Positions 5,839-55,102 are shown, numbered from the stretch's first letter. The stretch: DNA of 63,149 bases from Patescibacteria group bacterium (GCA_038064475.1 JBBTTA010000007.1:1-63149), one strand, 5' to 3'. A program made the numbers and translations. The notes: a model not told the origin generated them from the sequence alone.

Positions 5839-8139
5839 ATGAACACGCCACAAACATACACCGTGAAGGGAATGCACTGCGCCTCATGCGCGATTACGAT
5901 CGAAAAAACATTCAAAAAAACCGAAGGCGTACATTCGGCGGAAGTGAATTACGCTACGGAAACTGCAAAAGTGAGCTTTGATGAGACCAAGACAACACCA
6001 GAGAATCTTTCGAAGAAAATTGAGCCATTTGGATATTCTCTTTTGCTCGGAAACTCAACCGCAGAAGCAATGGGCATGTCAGAGAGCGAACATGCGGCAC
6101 ACCTTGGTCTCAATCAGTCAAAACAAGAAAAACTCGCCGAAATTGAGGGCATGAAACTAAAAGTGATGTCGGCAATCCCTTTGGCGGTTGTGAGCATTAT
6201 CGTTATGGCATGGGGTGTTTTGACGCAATTTGAGATTGTTGCACCTCCTAATGAAGTACTTGAAAAAACTTTCTCCTATCTGTTACCGCTGTTTGCGACG
6301 TACATGCTGTTGGTTGTGGGGAAGCCCTACCTTCTCGGTGTGTACCGCTTTTTACGCTATGGCAAGGCAAACATGGATACGCTCATTGGTATTGGTACGT
6401 CGGTCGCATATCTCTATAGTTTTGCATTGATTGTTTTTGAAGGGACGCTACGCGGGTATGTTGACGTTACGCAAAGTTATTTTGATGTGACCATCATCGT
6501 TATCGCATTTATCGCGCTTGGAAAATATCTTGAAGCACGATCAAAAATTAAAACAGGTGATGCCATCGAAAAACTTTTGAATCTACAGGCAAAAACGGCG
6601 CTCGTACTGCGTGATGGAGCAGAAAAGGAAGTTGCCATCAACGATGTTGTGCATGGGGACGTGGTTATCGTGAAGCCGGGGGGAAAGATTCCCGTTGACG
6701 GTGTCATTGTCGAAGGCATTTCCTTTATTGATGAATCGATGGTCACCGGTGAGCCGATGCCAGTACAAAAAAAGGAAGGAGACACCGTTGTAGCGGGAAC
6801 GATTAATACGAATAGCTCGTTTTCATTCCGCGCGACAAAGGTTGGTTCGGAAACACTTTTGGCGCATATCATTCGAATGGTTGAGGAAGCACAAGGAAGT
6901 CGTGCACCCATTCAAGCGTTGGCTGACAAGATATCGGGCGTGTTCGTTCCTGTGGTGCTTGTGATTGCGTTTCTAACACTCGGTCTCTGGCTTCTTATTG
7001 GTTCGCAGTATCTTGGATTTTCACAAGCATTGTCGTTTGGTCTCACATCGTTTGTCGGTATTCTTGTTATTGCATGTCCCTGCGCATTAGGGCTTGCAAC
7101 GCCGACGGCTATCATTGTCGGTGTTGGAAAAGGTGCACGCGAAGGCATTCTCATCAAAGATGCGGCAACACTGGAAAAACTACACAGCGTTGATACGCTC
7201 GTTGCCGACAAAACAGGCACAATCACGAAAGGAAAACCCGAGCTTGCAAGTGTCACGACATATTCAAACAAAGATGAGTCGCAGATTATTGCACTTCTTG
7301 CATCACTTGAAAACAAGTCGGAACATCCAATTGCACACGCCATCACTGAATACGCTCGTGTGAAGAATATTTCTCTTTCGCGTGTGGAAGATTTTGAAAA
7401 TATTAAAGGAAAGGGTGTGAAAGGTGTCATCGATGGCGTTGCGTACTTCGCAGGAAACACGAAACTCATCAAAGATCTCGGACTTACATTCGAAACAGGG
7501 ACACTTGAGGTTGAAACCTCAAAAGGAAAAACTCCCGTCATTCTCGCAACAAAAAGTGACGTCGTCGGTGTGGTGATGGTTGCGGACACAATCAAACCAG
7601 AAGCAATTGAAGCGGTAAAAAATCTTCACGCGCTCGGCATCAAAGTGGTAATGCTCACGGGAGACGATGTAAACACTGCGCGTGCCATCGCGGCAGAAGT
7701 AGGGATCGATGACGTTGTTGCGGAAGTTCTTCCAGAAGACAAGCTTACAAAGATTCGTGAACTTCAGGCGGCGGGACATGTGGTCGCAATGGCTGGGGAT
7801 GGCGTTAATGACGCACCTGCGCTTGCCGCCGCGGACGTCGGTATTGCGATGGGGACGGGAACTGATGTTGCGATTGAAACCGCAGGTATCACACTTCTTC
7901 ATGGTGACATCTCAAAATTGGTGAAGGCAATTCGTCTTTCGAAAGTGACGATGTGTGGCATCAAACAGAATCTTTTCTGGGCATTCATTTATAATATTGT
8001 TGGTATTCCGCTTGCGGCAGGGCTTTTCTATCCGATTTTCGGATGGCTCCTCTCACCAGTGTTTGCCGGTTTTGCGATGGCAATGTCGTCGGTGTCGGTT
8101 GTCGGCAATTCACTACGATTGAAGAGTAAAAAATTATAA
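5839..8139 (+). CDS. copA: Copper-translocating P1B-type ATPase
   Basis: N-terminal HMA motif GMHCASC, TM CPC motif, DKTGT, and GDGVNDAP. Confidence 0.95.
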
Positions 8140-25533: not shown

Positions 25534-25818
25534 TCAAAAACTGATAGGAGGGATGGTCTGTTGTGCACGAACTCCGCGACCGATCTGGATACCGATTTTG
25601 ATGTATGAACCGATTCGTCGATCTTTTTCTCGCGAAAGTTCACGGTTGCCGAACGTTTGCATCAAGCGTACTTCTTCCGGATCGAGCTGCAGTTGAACTT
25701 CTTCAACTCTGAGATCTTGAGGAAGAGCGGCTTTACGCTGTTTAAAACCCTCTGCACTTGGGGAAGCAATGAATCCGGCAACTTCACCGTTGGAGTGGAA
25801 CACTAAACCAAATTTCAT
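25534..25818 (-). CDS. Hypothetical 94-aa protein (SD-led cassette)
   Basis: AGGAGGTTTAA-ATG on the reverse strand. Ends at the bidirectional terminator. No family recognised. Confidence 0.65.
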   Translation of the reverse strand: MKFGLVFHSNGEVAGFIASPSAEGFKQRKAALPQDLRVEEVQLQLDPEEVRLMQTFGNRELSREKDRRIGSYIKIGIQIGRGVRAQQTIPPISF

Positions 25819-25966
25819 TTAAACCTCCTGATTTTGCACTTTGTGTACTGAATCTGGAATGACTATACGTGCGGGGGATTGTCAATGTTCAAAGGGTGTG
25901 GTAGAGTCCTCAGTCGCGCGTTCTTTCGGGGAATACTCCCCACAAATCACACGGAGGAGAAGCACG

Positions 25967-26206
25967 ATGTCCTTTGCTCAAGCGATACCGCAAGAGGAGA
26001 GTGCCCGTTGTCGTGTGACAGTGCAGGAGGATGACCCTATCAGAGGATACACCCTCCTTCAGACCGGCTGCGGCATGAAGGACATGCTCCTTCGCAAGAA
26101 CCCCCAGAAAAAGTGCGGCAACTGCAGGAAGCCCCTCGAATTTCCGGAAGACCTCTCCACGAGATCTTTCGGAGGCAGCGCGATACGGCTCGTTGCCGTT
26201 GCCTAA
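25967..26206 (+). CDS. Hypothetical 79-aa protein with CxxC (zinc-ribbon-like) (SD-led cassette)
   Basis: An internal ATG of track ORF 25841..26206 is preceded by ACGGAGGAGAAGCACG. Promoter TTGTCA-17-TAGAGT lies upstream. Contains the motif CGNC. Confidence 0.6.
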   Translation: MSFAQAIPQEESARCRVTVQEDDPIRGYTLLQTGCGMKDMLLRKNPQKKCGNCRKPLEFPEDLSTRSFGGSAIRLVAVA

Positions 26207-26212
26207 TCGTTC

Positions 26213-26247
26213 AACCCCACTTGGAAGCGAAGCTTCCAAGTGGGGTT
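26213..26247 (+). repeat. Palindromic hairpin, copy 1 of a 25-nt repeat
   Basis: The core CACTTGGAAGCGAAGCTTCCAAGTG (26218-26242) is identical to 54954-54978. It acts as the stem-loop after ORF 25967..26206. Confidence 0.85.
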
Positions 26248-26259
26248 TCCTTATACCTC

Positions 26260-26287
26260 TTGCAGAAAAAAATTGCTCGTGTATAGT
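26260..26287 (+). promoter_or_regulatory. Sigma70-type promoter re-initiating the rplC unit
   Basis: TTGCAG, a 16-nt spacer, then TATAGT. Confidence 0.6.
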
Positions 26288-26305
26288 GTCTTCTACTTGC
26301 GCCAT

Positions 26306-26378
26306 GTCCCGCCCTCTCGGAGAGGGCGGGACCTCTGGACACCAATGAGCCCCAGCTCGGACGTGTCCGAGCTGGGGC
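26306..26378 (+). promoter_or_regulatory. Two GC-rich hairpins in the rplC leader (candidate leader or sRNA)
   Basis: GTCCCGCCCTCTC-GGA-GAGGGCGGGAC (26306-26332) and GCCCCAGCTCGGAC-GT-GTCCGAGCTGGGGC (26349-26378). Confidence 0.5.
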
Positions 26379-26400
26379 ATCAATGTAAAAATAAGCACCA

Positions 26401-26510
26401 AACACGAAGCACGAAACTCGAAACAATATCAAAATCCAAATATCAAATTTCAAAACATTTGAATTTTGGTCATTCGGATTTGTTTCGGATTTCGATATTC
26501 GGATTTCGAA
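26401..26510 (+). repeat. About 110-nt intergenic repeat element, copy 1 (upstream of rplC)
   Basis: Starts AACACGAAGCAC and ends with TTCGGATTTCGATATTCGGATTTCGA, which is 26 nt identical to 36246-36271. Tandem TTCGGATTTCGA units face degenerate inverted copies. Confidence 0.85.
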
Positions 26511-26513
26511 TTT

Positions 26514-27122
26514 ATGAAGTTTGCAATCGGTACAAAGCAGAACATGACACAAATCTTCGACGAGAAGGGTATTGCATATGCCGTTACCGTTATTGCGATT
26601 CTCCCCATGTCAGTCACACAAGTGAAGACAACTGAAAAGGACGGCTACACTGCCGTTCAGATTGGTGGCGGCGCGAAAAAAGAATCAAAAGTGAACAAAG
26701 CACAGAAAGCGAAAGGAAATTTCAAAGCATTCAAAGAATTTCGCATGGATGATACAACTGCTCATACGGTTGGTCAGACACTCGATGTATCTGCATTTGC
26801 AGTCGGCGACTCACTTGAGATTGCAGGGCTTACAAAGTCAAAAGGTTTCCAGGGTGTCGTGAAGCGCCACGGTTTCCACGGAGGTCGTCGCACACACGGT
26901 CAGAAGCACTCTGAGCGTGAACCAGGTTCTATTGGTGGTGCAGGACGTTCAGGAGGTCGCGTGGTTCTTGGTATGCGCATGGCGGGTCGCATGGGTGGAA
27001 CTCGTGTGACAGTTAAGAACCTTAAGGTGATGCAAATTGATAAAGAGAATGGTTTTATTCTCGTGTCGGGCGCTGTACCGGGGCGACGCGGTACACAACT
27101 TGAACTCACCGCGTCCCGTTAG
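26514..27122 (+). CDS. rplC: 50S ribosomal protein L3
   Basis: MKFAIGTKQNMTQIFDEKG..GFQGVVKRHGF.GG..HG. Start at an internal ATG of track ORF 26466. Confidence 0.95.
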   Translation: MKFAIGTKQNMTQIFDEKGIAYAVTVIAILPMSVTQVKTTEKDGYTAVQIGGGAKKESKVNKAQKAKGNFKAFKEFRMDDTTAHTVGQTLDVSAFAVGDSLEIAGLTKSKGFQGVVKRHGFHGGRRTHGQKHSEREPGSIGGAGRSGGRVVLGMRMAGRMGGTRVTVKNLKVMQIDKENGFILVSGAVPGRRGTQLELTASR

Positions 27123-27214
27123 AAGTGGGGATTGTACGAACATAAAGAGTTCCTCATACAAATTATATGCAAGCAAAAACTTTAAATAAAAAAGAGACAA
27201 AAACTTCTAACGGG

Positions 27215-27883
27215 ATGAGTGCATCTGTCTACAACACACAAGGAAAAGAAGTACGCACAATCGACCTCCCCGAGAACATTTTTGATGTGCCAATGAACAA
27301 CGACCTCATTCACCAAGTGGTGACCTCAATGCAGTCAAACGCACGTGCTGGTGGGCCTCTCGCACACACAAAGGATCGCAGTGAAGTTCGTGGTGGTGGT
27401 AAGAAGCCATGGCGCCAGAAGGGAACAGGACGTGCACGTCACGGTTCATCACGTTCTCCAATTTGGATTGGTGGTGGTATCACACACGGCCCTCGCAATG
27501 ACAAAGACTACTCACGTCGTATTCCAAAGAAAATGCGTATGAAAGCTTTGACAACAACATTGTCACAGAAATTCCGCGCAGGCCACGTTCTCTTTGTTGA
27601 TAGCATTTCATTTGCTGCTCCAAAGACAAAGGACGCAAAGGTGGTACTCGCAGCACTCGCAGGTATCTCAGGTTTCGAAAAGATCACAACAAAGAAGAAC
27701 AATGCCGTTGTGTTGGCGCTTGCAAAGAACGATGCAAACACAAAGAAGAGCTTTGCAAACTTCGGCAACGTTTCCGTTGAAGAAATTCGTAACTTGAATC
27801 CGATTGATGTGATGTCAGCAACGTATCTCATCATTGAAAACCCAGACGAGGCAATCGCATTTCTTTCAACAAAATCAAACTAA
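27215..27883 (+). CDS. rplD: 50S ribosomal protein L4
   Basis: NNDLIHQVV..GGGKKPWRQKGTGRARHGS. ATG preceded by TCTAACGGG. The track ORF starts at 27167. Confidence 0.9.
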   Translation: MSASVYNTQGKEVRTIDLPENIFDVPMNNDLIHQVVTSMQSNARAGGPLAHTKDRSEVRGGGKKPWRQKGTGRARHGSSRSPIWIGGGITHGPRNDKDYSRRIPKKMRMKALTTTLSQKFRAGHVLFVDSISFAAPKTKDAKVVLAALAGISGFEKITTKKNNAVVLALAKNDANTKKSFANFGNVSVEEIRNLNPIDVMSATYLIIENPDEAIAFLSTKSN

Positions 27884-27884
27884 T

Positions 27885-28331
27885 ATGCTGTTCAAGAAAA
27901 AAGACAACGCAGAATCATCGAAGGCAAAAAACGCACTCTTTGCGAAGAAGAGCAAGGTGGTTGTTGATGATGCAGGGGCAAAGCCAGTCAGCATGAAGGG
28001 TGAAACGAAGGCGCGCGAAACGAAGGCACTTAAAACAACAATTGCATCAGGCAAGGTTGGTGCACACATTCTCCGCAACCCACGCATTACTGAAAAGGCT
28101 TCAATGGCAGCTTCAAACAACGTGTACGTCTTTGATGTTTCAAAAGACTCAACAAAGAACAGCATCAAGGCTGCAATCAAGGACGTGTACAAAATCACAC
28201 CAGTAAAAGTTCGTGTTGCCGCAATTCCAACAAAGACAGCAACAAACCGCCGCGGCATGACGACAACGACAGGTGGTGGTAAAAAAGCATACGTCTACCT
28301 CAAGAAAGGGGACACCATCGAACTCATCTAG
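27885..28331 (+). CDS. rplW: 50S ribosomal protein L23 with Lys-rich N-terminal extension
   Basis: LRNPRITEKA..NVYVFDV..KIAIK.VY.. pattern. Confidence 0.9.
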   Translation: MLFKKKDNAESSKAKNALFAKKSKVVVDDAGAKPVSMKGETKARETKALKTTIASGKVGAHILRNPRITEKASMAASNNVYVFDVSKDSTKNSIKAAIKDVYKITPVKVRVAAIPTKTATNRRGMTTTTGGGKKAYVYLKKGDTIELI

Positions 28332-28340
28332 TATTTATTT

Positions 28341-29192
28341 ATGAAACATCACAAACCTACAAGCGCAGGACGTCGTGACTCGGTAAGCATCAACTACCGC
28401 GAGTTTTTGACACCAAACATAAAGCCAACGAAGGCACTCGTAAAAGGAGGCAAGCGAAGCACAGGCCGCAACGCATTCGGCCGTCTCACGACACGCTCGA
28501 CTGGTGGAGGACACAAGCGTCGCTTCCGTGATGTTGACTTCATGTACGACAAACGCGACATCAAGGCGCGCGTTGAAAGTGTTGAGTACGATCCAAACCG
28601 ATCAGGTTTCATCGCACTTGTTCTCTACGCTGATGGTGAACGCCGTTATATTCTCGCTCCACAATCTTTGAAAGTTGGGGACTCAGTTATCACATCAGAG
28701 AATGCAGCGTTTACTCCGGGTAACCGTCTTCCCCTCGCAAAGATTCCTGTTGGTACATTTGTATACAACATTGAGCTCAAACCAAAGGGTGGTGCAAAAG
28801 TCGCACGCTCTGCCGGCAATTATGCTGAAGTTGTTGCGCACGACGGTGACTACACACTCGTAAAGATGCCATCAACTGAAATTCGTAAGTTCTCAGAACA
28901 CGCATGGGCATCTATTGGTGAAGTTTCAAATCCAGAAGCAAAGCTCGTAAACCTCGGTAAGGCAGGACGCTCACGATGGCTCGGTATCCGTCCAAAGGTT
29001 CGTGGTACAGCGATGAACCCAGTTGATCACCCACATGGTGGTGGTGAAGGACGTCAGGGCCGTGGTCACCGTCGCGCACGCACACGTCACGGTAAGAACA
29101 CAGGAAAGGGGCACAAGACACGCAAACCAAAGAAATACTCAAACTTCCTTATTGTTTCTCGCCGAAAAGTTGGCAAGAACCGCAAGAGTTAG
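28341..29192 (+). CDS. rplB: 50S ribosomal protein L2
   Basis: KPTSAGRR..VEYDPNRSGFIALV..RGTAMNPVDHPHGGGEGR. Confidence 0.97.
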   Translation: MKHHKPTSAGRRDSVSINYREFLTPNIKPTKALVKGGKRSTGRNAFGRLTTRSTGGGHKRRFRDVDFMYDKRDIKARVESVEYDPNRSGFIALVLYADGERRYILAPQSLKVGDSVITSENAAFTPGNRLPLAKIPVGTFVYNIELKPKGGAKVARSAGNYAEVVAHDGDYTLVKMPSTEIRKFSEHAWASIGEVSNPEAKLVNLGKAGRSRWLGIRPKVRGTAMNPVDHPHGGGEGRQGRGHRRARTRHGKNTGKGHKTRKPKKYSNFLIVSRRKVGKNRKS

Positions 29193-29218
29193 AAAACACA
29201 GAACAGAGAACAAAAAAC

Positions 29219-29284
29219 ATTCGATTTGCCAGTTGGTGAATCGAATATACGTACCATCATTCCTACGCCTGTAGGAATGATGGT
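29219..29284 (+). terminator. Two consecutive hairpins ending the rplC-rplB unit
   Basis: ATTCGATTTGCCAGTTGGTGAATCGAAT (29219-29246) and ACCATCATTCCTAC-GCCT-GTAGGAATGATGGT (29253-29284), followed by CGTTTAT. Confidence 0.65.
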
Positions 29285-29323
29285 CGTTTATACATACTTT
29301 TTCATTAGAAAATCAACCAAATG

Positions 29324-29355
29324 AAAAAGGCGCCGTTAGGTATGCGGCGCCTTTT
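29324..29355. terminator. Bidirectional terminator
   Basis: AAAAAGGCGCCG..CGGCGCCTTTT. It serves minus-strand ORF 29382..29564. Confidence 0.8.
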
Positions 29356-29381
29356 GAACTGCAGTACTGCGCGGGGCTTCT

Positions 29382-29564
29382 TCAGGTCGAAATGGGGAAG
29401 AGCGCGATGGCTGTCAGGCTGAGCAACAGCCTTTGCCCCTGGAATCTCCCTTCGAGCGGCTTCACCTCCACGATCTTGGAGGTGGCGGAAGGCTGGACGT
29501 GGGCTCGGCACGATCCGAGAAAGGCTGCTTCCACTCGGTATTGCCCCTTTTTGATACTGTCCAT
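29382..29564 (-). CDS. Hypothetical 60-aa protein (SD-led cassette)
   Basis: TTGGAGGGCCCGTCAG-ATG on the reverse strand. Upstream promoter TTGCCA-16-TACAAT. G/C-rich third positions. Chosen over the overlapping track ORF 29305..29580, which runs through the terminator. Confidence 0.55.
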   Translation of the reverse strand: MDSIKKGQYRVEAAFLGSCRAHVQPSATSKIVEVKPLEGRFQGQRLLLSLTAIALFPIST

Positions 29565-29713
29565 CTGACGGGCCCTCCAACAGTCAACCCCCCGAATTGG
29601 GAGTATGGCTTACATAGGAAAACCGCATTAACGAACTTCTAAAATGGATTGTACGCTGATATAAAAATTTGGCAAGGGGAAGTGGATAAATGAGCCCACA
29701 GCACGAGGCTCGT

Positions 29714-29741
29714 TTGACAATGCTCTACTTTTTGCTATTAT
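29714..29741 (+). promoter_or_regulatory. Sigma70-type promoter re-initiating the rpsS unit
   Basis: TTGACA, a 16-nt spacer, then TATTAT. Confidence 0.7.
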
Positions 29742-29748
29742 CTTATCC

Positions 29749-29768
29749 GAGCCGAACGGCTCCTTTTT
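29749..29768 (+). promoter_or_regulatory. Promoter-proximal terminator-like hairpin
   Basis: GAGCC-GAAC-GGCTC followed by CTTTTT, 8 nt after the -10 element. Confidence 0.5.
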
Positions 29769-29782
29769 AGTCCGTCTCCATG

Positions 29783-29907
29783 ATCCCGTTAGAGATGTTA
29801 AAGTCTCAAAACGGGGTATAAAGATGAAATAAAGGTTTTTGAAATGCTGTAAAGGTATTTTGGAATAATCACGGAAACGCAAAGCGTTTCCTGTCTCTAA
29901 CGGGATG
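29783..29907 (+). promoter_or_regulatory. Structured leader element, copy A (sequesters the rpsS start codon)
   Basis: ATCCCGTTAGAGA (29783-29795) is complementary to TCTCTAACGGGAT (29894-29906), which contains the AT of the ATG. Competing local hairpin CCCGTT..AACGGG (29785-29815). Hairpin GGAAACGC-AAA-GCGTTTCC (29873-29891). The paralogue is at 48983-49105. Confidence 0.7.
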
Positions 29908-30264
29908 ACACGATCACTCAAAAAAGGCCCCTACATTAACGAACGACTCATGCAGAAAGTCGCGAAGCGAAAAGCTGCAGATGGCGTTATTAAAACGTGG
30001 GCACGACCAAGTGTTATCACACCAGAAATGGTTGGATACACATTTGGTGTACACAACGGAAAGACACACGTTGATGTTTTTGTGACTGAAGAAATGGTAG
30101 GACACCGCTTGGGTGAGTTTTCTCCAACACGCACATTCCGCCGTCACGGTGGACAAATGCAAAAGGCGCTCGACCAAGCCAAGAAGGATGCCGAAATTGC
30201 TGCAGCTAAGTCAGCAAAGGGTGCTGCTGAGGGCGCGCCTGCTCCAAGTGGGGAAAAGAAGTAG
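29905..30264 (+). CDS. rpsS: 30S ribosomal protein S19 with Ala/Lys-rich C-terminal tail
   Basis: [34 protein letters not shown]. Confidence 0.95.
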
Positions 30265-30322
30265 AAGCAAGAATCAAGAATCAAAACTTCTAAACTTCAA
30301 ACATCAAAACTTTAAACTAACC
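30265..30322 (+). repeat. Word array (AAGAATC)x2 plus AAACTTC-type units
   Basis: GAAGCAAGAATCAAGAATCAAAACTTCTAAACTTCAAACATCAAAACTTTAAACTAACC fills the rpsS-rplV spacer. Confidence 0.85.
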
Positions 30323-33724: not shown

Positions 33725-33751
33725 AACATGCGATATATCGCATGTTTTTTT
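33725..33751 (+). terminator. Intrinsic terminator ending the rpsS-rplE unit
   Basis: AACATGCGATATATCGCATGTT followed by TTTTT. A second palindrome GTTCGATATATCGAAC follows. Confidence 0.8.
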
Positions 33752-33813
33752 GTTCGATATATCGAACATGTGCACTTTATATTTTCTTGAGCACGAATAT
33801 GTACACTCATGTA

Positions 33814-34206
33814 ATGGAAAAAGATTTTGGTGGTTGGAATGAAAGGAAAAAACTTTTACAGGCAAGAACAATACCACAATTTGTACATGAAAGAGAAATA
33901 TGGTGGTGTTCGTTTGGCATGAATATTGGTGATGAAGAAGATGGAAAGAATAACTTATTTGAAAGGCCGGCACTTGTTATAAGAAAGTTTAATAGGAGTG
34001 TTGTTTTAGTTGCCCCACTGACTACGAAAGCAAAAAGCAGCCCATATTATTTTTGTTTTACGCACGACAACACAACCTTTGCTGTTATTCTTTCGCAATT
34101 GCGTCTTGTAAGCACAAGGCGACTTAATCGGAGGATTAGAAAAATAAACTCGACTCTTTTTAGCGAGATAAAAAAGAAAATTATAGACGTTGTAATTACC
34201 CCCTAA
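33814..34206 (+). CDS. PemK/MazF-family toxin-like protein (orphan)
   Basis: EKDFGGWNERKK..REIWWCSFGMNIGDEEDGK...RPALVIRKFN..VVLVAPLTTK resembles solitary PemK/MazF-like proteins. Visibly A/T-rich. The start is uncertain (33799 or 33814). Confidence 0.65.
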   Translation: MEKDFGGWNERKKLLQARTIPQFVHEREIWWCSFGMNIGDEEDGKNNLFERPALVIRKFNRSVVLVAPLTTKAKSSPYYFCFTHDNTTFAVILSQLRLVSTRRLNRRIRKINSTLFSEIKKKIIDVVITP

Positions 34207-34421
34207 TAACAAACGATCCCCGCCTTATGGCGGGGTCTCCGGGGCCATGTGGCCATTTGTACTAATATACTAACACTTTCAAAACATGATGCAAGCTACG
34301 TATTGATTAAAAATTAATCTCTGCGTAAAACAATGCTGGAAATGCGTTCTGACTCCATGACGCTATTTACTGGAACTACCGATTCGGTTGAATACTATTC
34401 AACAGGCGCATTATGGAACTA

Positions 34422-34449
34422 TTGACATTATAATATAAAAGTGTATAAT
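34422..34449 (+). promoter_or_regulatory. Near-consensus sigma70 promoter
   Basis: TTGACA, a 16-nt spacer, then TATAAT. Confidence 0.75.
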
Positions 34450-34482
34450 ACACGCATACGTTCTTTCACAAGGAATTGCAAA

Positions 34483-34534
34483 ATTGACCGTGGCTTTGAG
34501 ATCTTTTTATTGAGATTTCACAACCGCGGTCAAT
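34483..34534 (+). promoter_or_regulatory. 11-bp inverted repeat in the 5' leader of ORF 34581
   Basis: ATTGACCGTGG (34483-34493) pairs with CCGCGGTCAAT (34524-34534), with one mismatch. The inner sequence has TGAGAT direct repeats. Confidence 0.5.
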
Positions 34535-34580
34535 TGAGACTTGCGGAATGCTCCGGGCAACGAAGCCCAAGGAGAACACC

Positions 34581-35180
34581 ATGAGTTGGATGACCAAGGA
34601 TTGGACGCAGGGCGAGCTGAATGCGCTGGTGAAGAAGATCGGCGGCGAGGAAGTCGCTCGCGGCGTCCTCAACGACAGCCTTCTCTTCAAGATCGAGAAG
34701 TCGACGGTTCCGCCTCTTCTCGACGTCATCGGTACTCACCTCGTGTTGGCGACCACCTCGCCGATTTTCGGGATCGAGAAGTTCAAGCTGAAGAAGGACG
34801 GGGGAATCTGCTCCTACCTCGGCGACAATTTCCGCTCCTGGTTCCTCGGAAAGACCGAGGACCCCAAGAGCGAGACCACGCTCCGCTCCGCCAGACTCAC
34901 AAGGAACTCGCCCGACAAGCCAATCCTCGAGACGCTCGGCGACAAGGCGGAGACCAGTCTCGCGGAGATGTTCGCGATGATGGAAGTGCAGGCTGATGGT
35001 AAGGGGGGCAACCTCCTCGTCAACGGCTACGCCAACATCTTCTACGTGAAGGACTCCACCGGCATGCTTCGCGCGGTCTACGCGCACTGGTTCGGCGTGG
35101 GCTGGGGCGTGCACGCGGGCTCCGTCGGGGGCCCGAGCGGGTGGCGCGACGGCGGTCGGGTCTTCTCTCGCAATTCCTGA
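34581..35180 (+). CDS. Hypothetical 199-aa protein, strongly G/C-rich at third positions (SD-led cassette)
   Basis: CAAGGAGAACACC-ATG inside track ORF 34548..35180. Codon usage is unlike that of neighbouring r-protein genes. No family recognised. Confidence 0.7.
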   Translation: MSWMTKDWTQGELNALVKKIGGEEVARGVLNDSLLFKIEKSTVPPLLDVIGTHLVLATTSPIFGIEKFKLKKDGGICSYLGDNFRSWFLGKTEDPKSETTLRSARLTRNSPDKPILETLGDKAETSLAEMFAMMEVQADGKGGNLLVNGYANIFYVKDSTGMLRAVYAHWFGVGWGVHAGSVGGPSGWRDGGRVFSRNS

Positions 35181-50176: not shown

Positions 50177-50543
50177 TGGAGATGGGCGGGTTGAACCGCC
50201 GTCCATTATGTGATGTCGTGCGAGTCTACGTAGTCTAGACTCTCTTTGTATCTCACGACATGGCTCTAAGAGAAACCAAATACCATGTCGCCAGCTTCTT
50301 TATTTTGAGATGTAGCCGAAACAGGAAACATCCCTAGTTTGAATTGGTTTACACTCGATAACACTTCTCAAACAAAAGTGTTAGAAAGCGTCGCTTACGC
50401 TAATGCGAAGGCGAAGTCACGTGCTGTGAAGTACGGACTTTTTGCTGCAGAGTTTGCAGGTATGTGTGCACTTTGGTGAGGGAGTAGTACGCTCCCACCA
50501 CGCACGCATGACAATCGTCATAATGTCGAAACAAGACATCCCC
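50177..50543 (-). ncRNA. ssrA: tmRNA (SsrA)
   Basis: Minus strand starts GGGGATGTCTTGTTTCGACATTA and ends GGACGGCGGTTCAACCCGCCCATCTCCA (tRNA-like T-arm and acceptor). Tag frame ..GCA AAC TCT GCA GCA AAA AGT CCG TAC TTC ACA GCA CGT GAC TTC GCC TTC GCA TTA GCG TAA. Adjacent to smpB. Confidence 0.9.
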
Positions 50544-54985: not shown

Positions 54986-55028
54986 CCGTGCGACGCTCAG
55001 CGTCGCACGGAATAACTGCAAACGTCCG

Positions 55029-55102
55029 TCCGCCCCCTTGGAATCGAACCAAGAACCGCCGAGGTATAAGCTCGGTGCTCTAACCAATTGAGCTAGGGGC
55101 GG
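55029..55102 (-). tRNA. tRNA-Ile (anticodon UAU)
   Basis: Reverse-strand 74-nt cloverleaf with acceptor CCGCCCC/GGGGCGG, D-arm GCTCAATTGGTTAGAGC, anticodon stem CCGAG/CTCGG with loop CTTATAC, and T-loop GGTTCGATTCC. Confidence 0.85.

Follow-up and report, generated by a model that had tools for sequence, protein, structure and literature searches.

What is the structured leader that ends on the start codon of rpsS in a Patescibacteria group bacterium, and what kind of sequence is it? We addressed this question in a stretch of 63,149 nucleotides (GCA_038064475.1 JBBTTA010000007.1:1-63149; hereafter the window, whose coordinates are used for all features in it), with a focus on positions 29714–29907. 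An initial annotation had read this leader, together with a second copy upstream of rpmI, as a paralogous pair of ribosomal-protein (r-protein) regulatory RNAs that sequester the start codon. The window holds three copies of the module, here called A, B, and C, and they are probably members of a widespread family of small, non-autonomous elements of ~95–125 bp, similar to MITEs (short for miniature inverted-repeat transposable element), in Patescibacteria of the Parcubacteria/Paceibacteria type. We describe the family as a MITE whose niche, the start codon, is unusual and whose design seems to allow translational pass-through.

The two copies already described can be read directly from the DNA. 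In copy A, ATCCCGTTAGAGA (29783–29795, plus strand) is the exact reverse complement of TCTCTAACGGGAT (29894–29906), whose final two bases are the start of the rpsS ATG (29905–29907). Copy B, on the minus strand, carries the same arms at 49105–49093 and 48996–48984, where the rpmI ATG is 48985–48983, and its 21-nt 3' end, TTTCCTGTCTCTAACGGGATG, is identical to that of copy A. The spacing between arm and hairpin is 77 nt in copy A, as had been given, and 76 nt, not 74, in copy B. A hairpin abuts the 3' arm in both, GGAAACGC/GCGTTTCC at 29873–29891 in copy A and GGAAATG-TACA-CATTTCC at 49016–48999 in copy B, although the latter has 7 bp and a 4-nt loop instead of the 8 bp and 2-nt loop first described. 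The rplD ATG had been said to have no upstream partner; the partner exists, since TCCCGTTAGAAGT (27114–27126) pairs with ACTTCTAACGGGA (27203–27215), with compensatory differences with respect to copies A and B, and the window therefore has three copies. With at most two mismatches, the 13-mer occurs five times in the window against 0.87 expected, a number reached in none of 100 shuffles. A covariance model finds exactly three copies (A, 59.8 bits; B, 58.2; C, 56.9), copy A scoring 33.9 bits on the reverse strand, and the 13-bp arms are perfect in all of them. RNA folding places the long-range helix in the minimum free energy structure of copy A (−43.2 kcal/mol, z −5.1) and of copy B (−43.4 kcal/mol, z −6.4); the isolated local 5' hairpins reach −16.0 kcal/mol (copy A, z −5.1) and −12.4 kcal/mol (copy B), and copy C folds at −28.0 kcal/mol (z −4.0). 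The identities of the S19, L35, L4, L3, IF3, L20, and L2 genes were confirmed by Pfam. The features of the three copies are the following:

29714–29741, plus strand: sigma-70-like promoter TTGACA-16-TGcTATTAT driving rpsS (11 of 12 consensus positions), conserved in the closest relative, L011; host sequence, outside the element.
29780–29783, plus strand: left target copy ATGA, the original rpsS start codon, read from the sequence.
29780–29821, plus strand: leader open reading frame (ORF) of copy A, 13 codons, stop TAA, opened by the left ATGA copy.
29784–29905, plus strand: copy A (T...A, 122 nt) at the rpsS start codon, from the covariance model and the filled/empty alignment with L011.
29783–29796, plus strand: 5' arm of copy A's closing helix, from sequence and folding; alternative local hairpin at 29785–29815.
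29873–29891, plus strand: 3' local hairpin of copy A from folding, GGAAACGC-AAA-GCGTTTCC, followed by TG and the 3' arm.
29893–29907, plus strand: 3' arm of copy A and regenerated rpsS ATG, whose A is the last base of the element.
48985–49104, minus strand: copy B at the rpmI start codon, filling the infC-rpmI spacer (covariance model).
49105–49109, minus strand: left target copy ATGAA, the original rpmI start; the right flank repeats ATGAA at 48985–48981.
49109–49077, minus strand: leader ORF of copy B, 10 codons, opened by the left ATGAA.
48983–48996, minus strand: 3' arm of copy B and regenerated rpmI ATG (48985–48983), with the 3' hairpin at 49016–48999.
27114–27215, plus strand: copy C between rplC and rplD, arms at 27114–27126 and 27203–27215.

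Positions 1–81 of the S19 Pfam profile align to residues 3–81 of the rpsS product, and the L35 match starts at residue 1 of that of rpmI, whose original start sits 4 nt past the infC stop TAA (49116–49114). In copy C, the rplC stop TAG (27120–27122) falls inside the 5' arm, the rplD ATG is 27215–27217, an in-frame internal ATG lies at 27167, and the left target copy is gone. The target duplications in the window are thus ATGA for copy A, ATGAA for copy B, and none for copy C. A consequence for annotation is that gene callers run L4 and L35 into the element: with in-frame ATGs inside it (27167–27217; 49012–48983 on the minus strand), L4 (238 aa) and L35 (70 aa) are called too long. These extensions are probably annotation artefacts; the ATG at 27167 could give an N-terminally extended L4.

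How far does the module extend beyond the window? We scanned metagenomes with the pattern TCCCGTTAGA-N(75–105)-TCTAACGGGA, in which the TG of the ATG was not imposed, and at least 120 contigs matched. The metagenome matches listed, which are selected for perfect 10-nt arms, were pooled with the copies in the loci of relatives to give 150 distinct copies, and all family counts rest on this sample. An ATG directly follows ...CGGG on one side in 131 of the 150 listed copies, so that the module is fused to start codons elsewhere too, and 123 of these 131 open an ORF of at least 50 codons. Pfam matches of 10 downstream proteins begin at residues 1–15 (104 and 107 for a membrane protein and a Mur ligase); matches at or near the N terminus indicate that the ATG at the element end is the true gene start. 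The downstream families are unrelated (SSB, GlpX, guanylate kinase Gmk, a MurC-type ligase, MnmA, NUDIX, MraY-type, ThyX, and a dehydrogenase), and further ones identified by eye include FtsH, RpoB, aminoacyl-tRNA synthetases, L9, L22, and S19. Copies are 62–154 bp long, and they can be dense, with five in 8.3 kb of one relative's locus (L015). The covariance-model search that had been suggested found all three window copies, and when 655 kb of metagenome loci were swept with the model, hardly any diverged copies were added.

Among species-representative genomes, the best S19 matches come from Parcubacteria/Paceibacteria-type Patescibacteria, the closest being L011 (85% identical); an identical S19 is also encoded on a Hainich groundwater contig. 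The module, as CCCGTTAG...CTAACGGG, recurs at different genes in the r-protein loci of L011, L013, L015, L044, and L047. These are 5 of 80 related species, and in none of the 80 is there a copy at rpsS. A distantly related genome (L113 548–671; S19 ~60% identical, by eye) has copies at the rpsS start and at rplV; set beside L011, which lacks one at rpsS, this suggests independent insertions at the same start codon.

The ends of the copies carry the footprints of insertion. An exact 5-nt direct repeat, ATGNN, flanks 87 of the 150 (ATGAA in 57, ATGGA in 11, ATGAG in 8, ATGCG in 5, and others, with NN including AT and GG). Because NN varies with the gene, we take the direct repeat as a target-site duplication (TSD) and not as element sequence. 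The closing pair, which covaries, is T..A in 141 copies; the 6 copies with C..G are followed by TG, giving GTG starts. Judging from these junctions, the element proper is Y-CCCGTTAGA...TCTAACGGG-R, with perfect terminal inverted repeats (TIRs), TCCCGTTAGA plus three variable, mutually complementary bases. Insertion occurs between the A and the TGNN of ATGNN, preferably in ATGAA, and duplicates TGNN (sometimes only TGN). The last base of the element then supplies the first base of the rebuilt start codon, and the original ATG and the native upstream region remain at the left end. A preference for ATGAA is also what the occupied sites point to, the bases after the ATG being AA in 64% of occupied versus 20% of unoccupied predicted starts. 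A few copies lie at ATAAA, GTAAA, or CTAA-type sites that are not starts and have no ORF.

Filled and empty sites can be compared at rpsS itself. L011 shares with the window both the promoter, TTGACA-16-TATTAT, and the start (ATGACACGATC; ...ttcaacATGACACGATCG) but lacks the element, and its site is thus empty. The filled site of the window reads ...ctccATGA[TCCCG...CGGG]ATGACACGATC, and the alignment gap of ~129 columns corresponds to the 122-nt element, the duplicated target, and adjacent unalignable bases. Likewise, removal of the element and one repeat from copy B leaves a compact junction, infC-TAA-GGTT-ATGAAAACG. At the strain level no empty allele was found, as the nine other contigs with identical S19 all have copy A, with 0–1 differences. 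Two of the five copies of L015 stand in tandem (5927–6163) with one ATGAA between them, which fits re-insertion into a regenerated ATGAA. At L097 3078–3307, L099 2686–2927, and L200 9069–9282, too, one start codon carries copies that are wholly or partly in tandem.

We infer from these footprints that the element moved by transposition through some enzyme. TIRs, TSDs, small size, dispersal, and a filled/empty site, the usual marks of a MITE, are all present, with the exception of an autonomous partner. An insertion of the IS200/IS605 type was considered and rejected: elements of that type insert 3' of a fixed tetranucleotide and make no duplication, whereas the right flank here repeats the variable NN, i.e., a duplication exists. 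The initial annotation had contrasted its proposal with a MITE scattered, with TSDs, at random positions. The TSDs and the dispersal are there, but the positions are not random, the copies being tied to start codons.

Can this association be explained by the availability of targets? In 785 kb of loci, and with a crude gene model, unoccupied ATGRR sites number 270 at predicted starts, ~1278 in non-coding sequence, and 4698 in coding sequence. Availability alone, even with all intragenic insertions lethal, predicts only a minority of copies at starts. Since non-coding ATGRR sites outnumber start sites, simple availability does not explain that 82–87% of the listed copies lie at starts. Orientation is also fixed: although the termini are symmetric, an asymmetry inside the element, a CT junction 5' of one arm, faces the gene in 77 copies and lies on the far side in only 6.

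Conservation is restricted to the arms, with no conserved interior. In an alignment of 115 copies, pairs 1–10 of the closing helix are invariant because the search imposed them, and for pairs 11–13, on which it placed no constraint, pairing holds in 114, 111, and 109 copies (95–99%), with 3–4 pair types each. At pair 14, no more than 42 of the 115 copies still pair. The covariation of pairs 11–13, and its stop thereafter, indicate that the closing helix is held at 13 bp; separate binding of a transposase to each end would not demand such complementarity between arms. The earlier description of a structured, repeated module with covarying helices fused to start codons is borne out. The compensatory change it had noted in the abutting hairpin is real as well, but it is a property of the family: a local hairpin of at least 6 bp, whose stem sequence varies widely, abuts the 3' arm in 37 of 121 copies, window copies A and B included. 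By eye, about a fifth of the aligned copies offer the 5' arm a partner nearby.

The helix makes the rebuilt start codon costly to reach. Opening positions −12 to +12 around the rebuilt AUG requires on average 16.6 kcal/mol. The corresponding figure is 8.0 kcal/mol for starts of the same contigs that carry no element, and 18.0 kcal/mol with the element reversed in silico. Sequestration is offset in copy A by the alternative 5' hairpin, as had been proposed: by folding, its AUG opens at 7.2 kcal/mol, typical of ordinary starts, while copy B requires 14.7 kcal/mol.

If the AUG is buried, how are the genes expressed? Of the 121 gene-linked copies, 99 retain the left ATG together with its native upstream sequence, and these include copies A and B of the window. 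The 5' arm is open in the frame of this ATG (ATG AAT CCC GTT AGA), and the other two frames meet TGA and TAG. At the other end, the 3' arm has a TAA 4 nt before the ATG (UAA at −7), and ATGA makes an overlapping TGA. The leader ORF is open through the whole element in 48 of the 99 copies with intact left ATG, against a chance level of 12.5 ± 3.1 (maximum 23 in 1000 interior shuffles, which overstate independence because the copies share ancestry) and against 16 and 21 in the two comparable reverse-complement frames. Of these 48 leaders, 25 stop at the UAA in the arm (UAACGGGAUG), 18 at the overlapping AUGA, and the other 5 are in-frame fusions, which puts the leader's end at or near the rebuilt start in 43 of the 99 copies. 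The leaders of window copies A and B stop ~85 and ~90 nt upstream. A conserved leader peptide was considered and rejected, since the frame differs between copies with ATGAA and those with ATGA before the element's T, and the peptides are unrelated save for their arm-encoded ends. It is therefore the openness that is kept, and not a protein. Upstream of the native starts (−20 to −1, 121 copies), Shine-Dalgarno enrichment is not clear, with 25–33% G at −4 to −2, which suggests weak Shine-Dalgarno use in these organisms.

Because of the fixed orientation, the open leader ORFs, and the buried AUG, we propose translational pass-through. The inverted repeats would form a 13-bp mRNA helix that buries the rebuilt AUG. 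Ribosomes would load at the native initiation region, begin at the left AUG, and translate into the element, melting the helix. In about half of the copies they would terminate at the UAA of the 3' arm or at the UGA of AUGA and then reinitiate on the gene; alternatively, the translating ribosome would keep the 3' arm single-stranded for a new initiation. The short leader ORFs of copies A and B would cover only the 5' arm, for which the local hairpin would also compete, and their effect would be to unmask the AUG, not to bring about reinitiation directly. Translation of rplC ends in copy C at the UAG within the 5' arm, and the ribosome that stops there would open the helix and so play the part of the leader ribosome. 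That leader translation rescues host-gene expression is a tentative suggestion, which we consider possible but somewhat short of probable.

Several observations weigh against this account of the family. An autonomous element, or a transposase with these inverted repeats, was not found in the window, nor in ~1.5 Mb of loci and the viral contigs when we looked for arm pairs 0.3–4 kb apart flanking a transposase, and unpaired arms in the 1.5 Mb of loci are at chance level, with none beside a transposase. Half of the copies, window copies A and B included, have early leader stops, so that reinitiation is not a universal rescue. The left ATG is conserved at 0.94, 0.94, and 0.88, compared with 0.88 and 0.90 for the adjacent NN, and there is no direct sign of selection on it. 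Behind the perfect complementarity of the arms at their variable positions there could be DNA hairpin biology instead of RNA function. The shared ancestry behind the shuffle statistics and the crude gene model behind the site counts, both given above, also belong here.

A first alternative keeps the element and drops any adaptation to translation: a purely selfish MITE, whose bias toward starts results from its preference for ATGAA and from the loss of other insertions. The strong ATGAA preference, the few insertions at non-start sites, the shared ancestry of the copies, and a left ATG that is not specially conserved all agree with it. It does not account, however, for the 77:6 orientation, for a four-fold excess of open leaders in the forward frame only, or for the fact that the arms carry stops in precisely those two frames that the left ATG does not set. 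Few copies, moreover, lie at non-coding ATGRR sites although these outnumber starts, and the element persists before essential genes despite an AUG burial of ~17 kcal/mol. We consider this alternative unlikely. At the opposite extreme, start codons could be a niche by mechanism and not only by survival, through oriented recognition of initiation sites by the integration machinery, for instance with the help of a guide or of a step linked to translation, or through bypass or excision at the level of RNA or ribosome between the paired ATGNN sites; we regard this as rather doubtful, although, if true, it would mean that in ultra-compact genomes a mobile element had evolved to be "translationally transparent" where essential genes begin, and that it might be co-opted as a translational switch.

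A second alternative, plausible in itself, is an RNA-processing module, in which the closing helix stacked on inner helices forms an RNase III-type site and cleavage takes the hairpin out, leaving an mRNA with a short leader for direct translation. A perfect helix that covaries and keeps a fixed length agrees with this, the AUG would otherwise be inaccessible, and the Correia (NEMIS) elements of Neisseria, MITEs of ~104–157 bp whose mRNA is processed by RNase III, offer a precedent. However, 13 bp alone is short for RNase III, and the excess of open leaders ending at the AUG would be left unexplained. As an account of the family it seems to us quite improbable.

The reading of the initial annotation, in which a paralogous leader senses S19, L20, or L35 and switches between the sequestering helix and the local hairpin, fares worse. 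All three window copies do precede r-protein genes, both the long-range helix and the alternative hairpin are predicted, and the infC-rpmI spacer is where the L20 operator of E. coli is placed. Nevertheless, ~40% of the genes in the window are r-protein genes, and three of three copies at such genes is not significant. The same module stands before more than 100 unrelated genes in many organisms, including those for SSB, GlpX, Mur ligases, tRNA modification, and membrane proteins. No Rfam r-protein leader matches it. The TSDs, the tandem copies, the empty rpsS site of L011 despite the same promoter, and the scarcity of copies in the r-protein loci of related species all speak against such a sensor, which we hold to be very unlikely.

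Excision of the element like an intron between its ATGNN repeats, or a hop of the initiator tRNA from the left to the right AUG (cf. T4 gene 60 and mitochondrial byp), is just as hard to credit: identical take-off and landing ATGNN do flank a stable hairpin, and tolerance at essential genes would be explained without an open frame, but only the arms are conserved and not a potentially catalytic interior, Rfam ribozymes and introns do not match, an ordinary TSD accounts for the repeats, and the excess of open frames would be needless. Finally, a portable promoter transcribing the downstream gene from the AT-rich interior (~31% GC, with a TGgAATAAT-like motif in copy A) is highly improbable, and we rejected an internal promoter because promoter-like sites are about equal on the gene strand (23 of 121) and the opposite strand (25 of 121) and have no preferred position.

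We return to the MITE-like family with its putative pass-through. A tempting misreading is corrected by it, as the covariation and the start-codon fusion that suggested an r-protein riboregulator come from a mobile element family. For a MITE it is unusual to sit at start codons of essential genes, to rebuild the ATG with its own last base, to keep one orientation, and often to maintain an open frame that leads from the former ATG to a stop in contact with the rebuilt one; the open frame and the rebuilt ATG look like a built-in way of sparing the host gene. If true, this would show selfish DNA persisting in genomes of roughly 0.5–1 Mb with almost no non-coding space. With these copies, termination-reinitiation and initiation masked by structure could also be studied as they occur naturally in bacteria with little Shine-Dalgarno signal, and the element is a possible marker of strain-level dynamics in Patescibacteria.

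Viral sequences hold a related form. In IMG/VR viral contigs we found only short versions of 30–60 nt, in which the 5' arm has an internal partner. Before the 3' arm stands a Shine-Dalgarno, AAGGAGGT, that belongs to the short version itself, and the leader ORFs stop either at the UAA of the arm or at an overlapping AUGA. The long form is absent from the viral contigs and from the GenBank phages searched, and the 15-mer ATGAATCCCGTTAGA gives mostly chance matches in the viral contigs. The short versions are located as follows:

L216, 10174–10216.
L222, 4733–4777 and 9058–9117.
L227, 376–418.
L240, 2708–2759.
L232, 3730–3830.

The surroundings of the three copies in the window offer further observations. 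The gap between rplB and rpsS measures 712 nt in the window (29193–29779 region) and 532 nt in L011 (3469–4000). It holds a conserved promoter, which implies that the S10 operon is split in this lineage. After this promoter (29714–29741), both genomes have a small hairpin and a U run, with compensatory stems (GAGCC/GGCTC versus GGCC/GGCC). A small minus-strand gene in the gap (ORF 29305–29580) was rejected, as it is not conserved in L011. Just upstream of the rplC start, an imperfect hairpin of ~95 nt (26405–26501; −35.4 kcal/mol, z −4.6) has only weak Rfam matches, to miRNA precursors, and may be a different palindromic element; the ATG at 26513 (MKFAIG) is likely the true rplC start. The r-protein cluster is interrupted twice, at ~25534–26401 (L001 5630–6476) by two minus-strand ORFs between rpsJ and rplC, and at ~33742–34700 (L001 13838–15210) by a PemK-family toxin gene and a reverse ORF between rplE and rpsN. 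A tRNA-Ile with anticodon TAT lies at 55028–55102, and a standard tmRNA at 50174–50543 (tag ANSAAKSPYFTARDFAFALA).

How does the element compare with known systems? Rfam 15 gave no match at the three copies at gathering thresholds and none at E ≤ 5 in 26400–30300. In the full-text literature we found no description of this element; the coverage was incomplete, so that novelty is not proven. The r-protein leaders (the L20 leader, the E. coli L20 operator, and the S10/L4 leader) are similar in being structured RNAs able to occlude an initiation region. Such leaders keep orthologous positions, imitate sites in rRNA, and belong specifically to r-protein operons; this element lacks the first and the last of these traits and seems to lack the second. 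With Correia/NEMIS elements it shares small size, TIRs predicted to fold into an mRNA hairpin, a TSD, and many copies near genes, and it would share co-transcription with neighbouring genes and effects on mRNA, which for Correia elements consist in RNase III processing. Correia elements, however, duplicate TA and lie at variable distance from genes in either orientation, whereas this element duplicates the TGNN of the start codon, contributes the A to the new ATG, is found in one fixed orientation, and often has an ORF suited to pass-through.

Along with Correia/NEMIS, the nearest described relatives are ERIC, Rickettsia palindromic elements (RPE), and REP2 of Neisseria (PMC3184786). REP2 is a dispersed repeat of promoter, ribosome-binding site, and ATG, fused to the initiation codons of unrelated genes (PMC3184786), and it resembles our element in standing directly before, and fused to, such start codons. 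It brings a promoter and a ribosome-binding site, and no start-codon TSD is reported for it; the element described here has no promoter signal, no Shine-Dalgarno in its long form, a start codon buried in a helix, and clear TSDs. RPE, palindromic mobile elements of 100–150 bp, and other repeats joined in frame to ORFs survive within expressed genes by means of an open frame (PMC3184786). RPE lie inside coding sequence and are translated as part of the protein, while our element sits exactly at the start codon with an ORF that normally ends shortly before the rebuilt AUG or overlaps it, in-frame fusions being only 5 of 99. The closest analogue of the proposed mechanism is found in integrons, where ORF-11 and ORF-18 of attI1 and the short ORFs of attC hairpins lead, by termination-reinitiation, onto a downstream start (PMC8876359). 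There an ORF of a mobile site is translated through structure, as we propose for this element. A relationship with attC itself was rejected, the resemblance of the arm GTTAGA to the attC core GTTRRRY being superficial and the stem polarity opposite. The integron ORFs are part of site-specific recombination sites and have their own Shine-Dalgarno, whereas in the Patescibacteria element the ORF begins at the duplicated start codon of the host gene.

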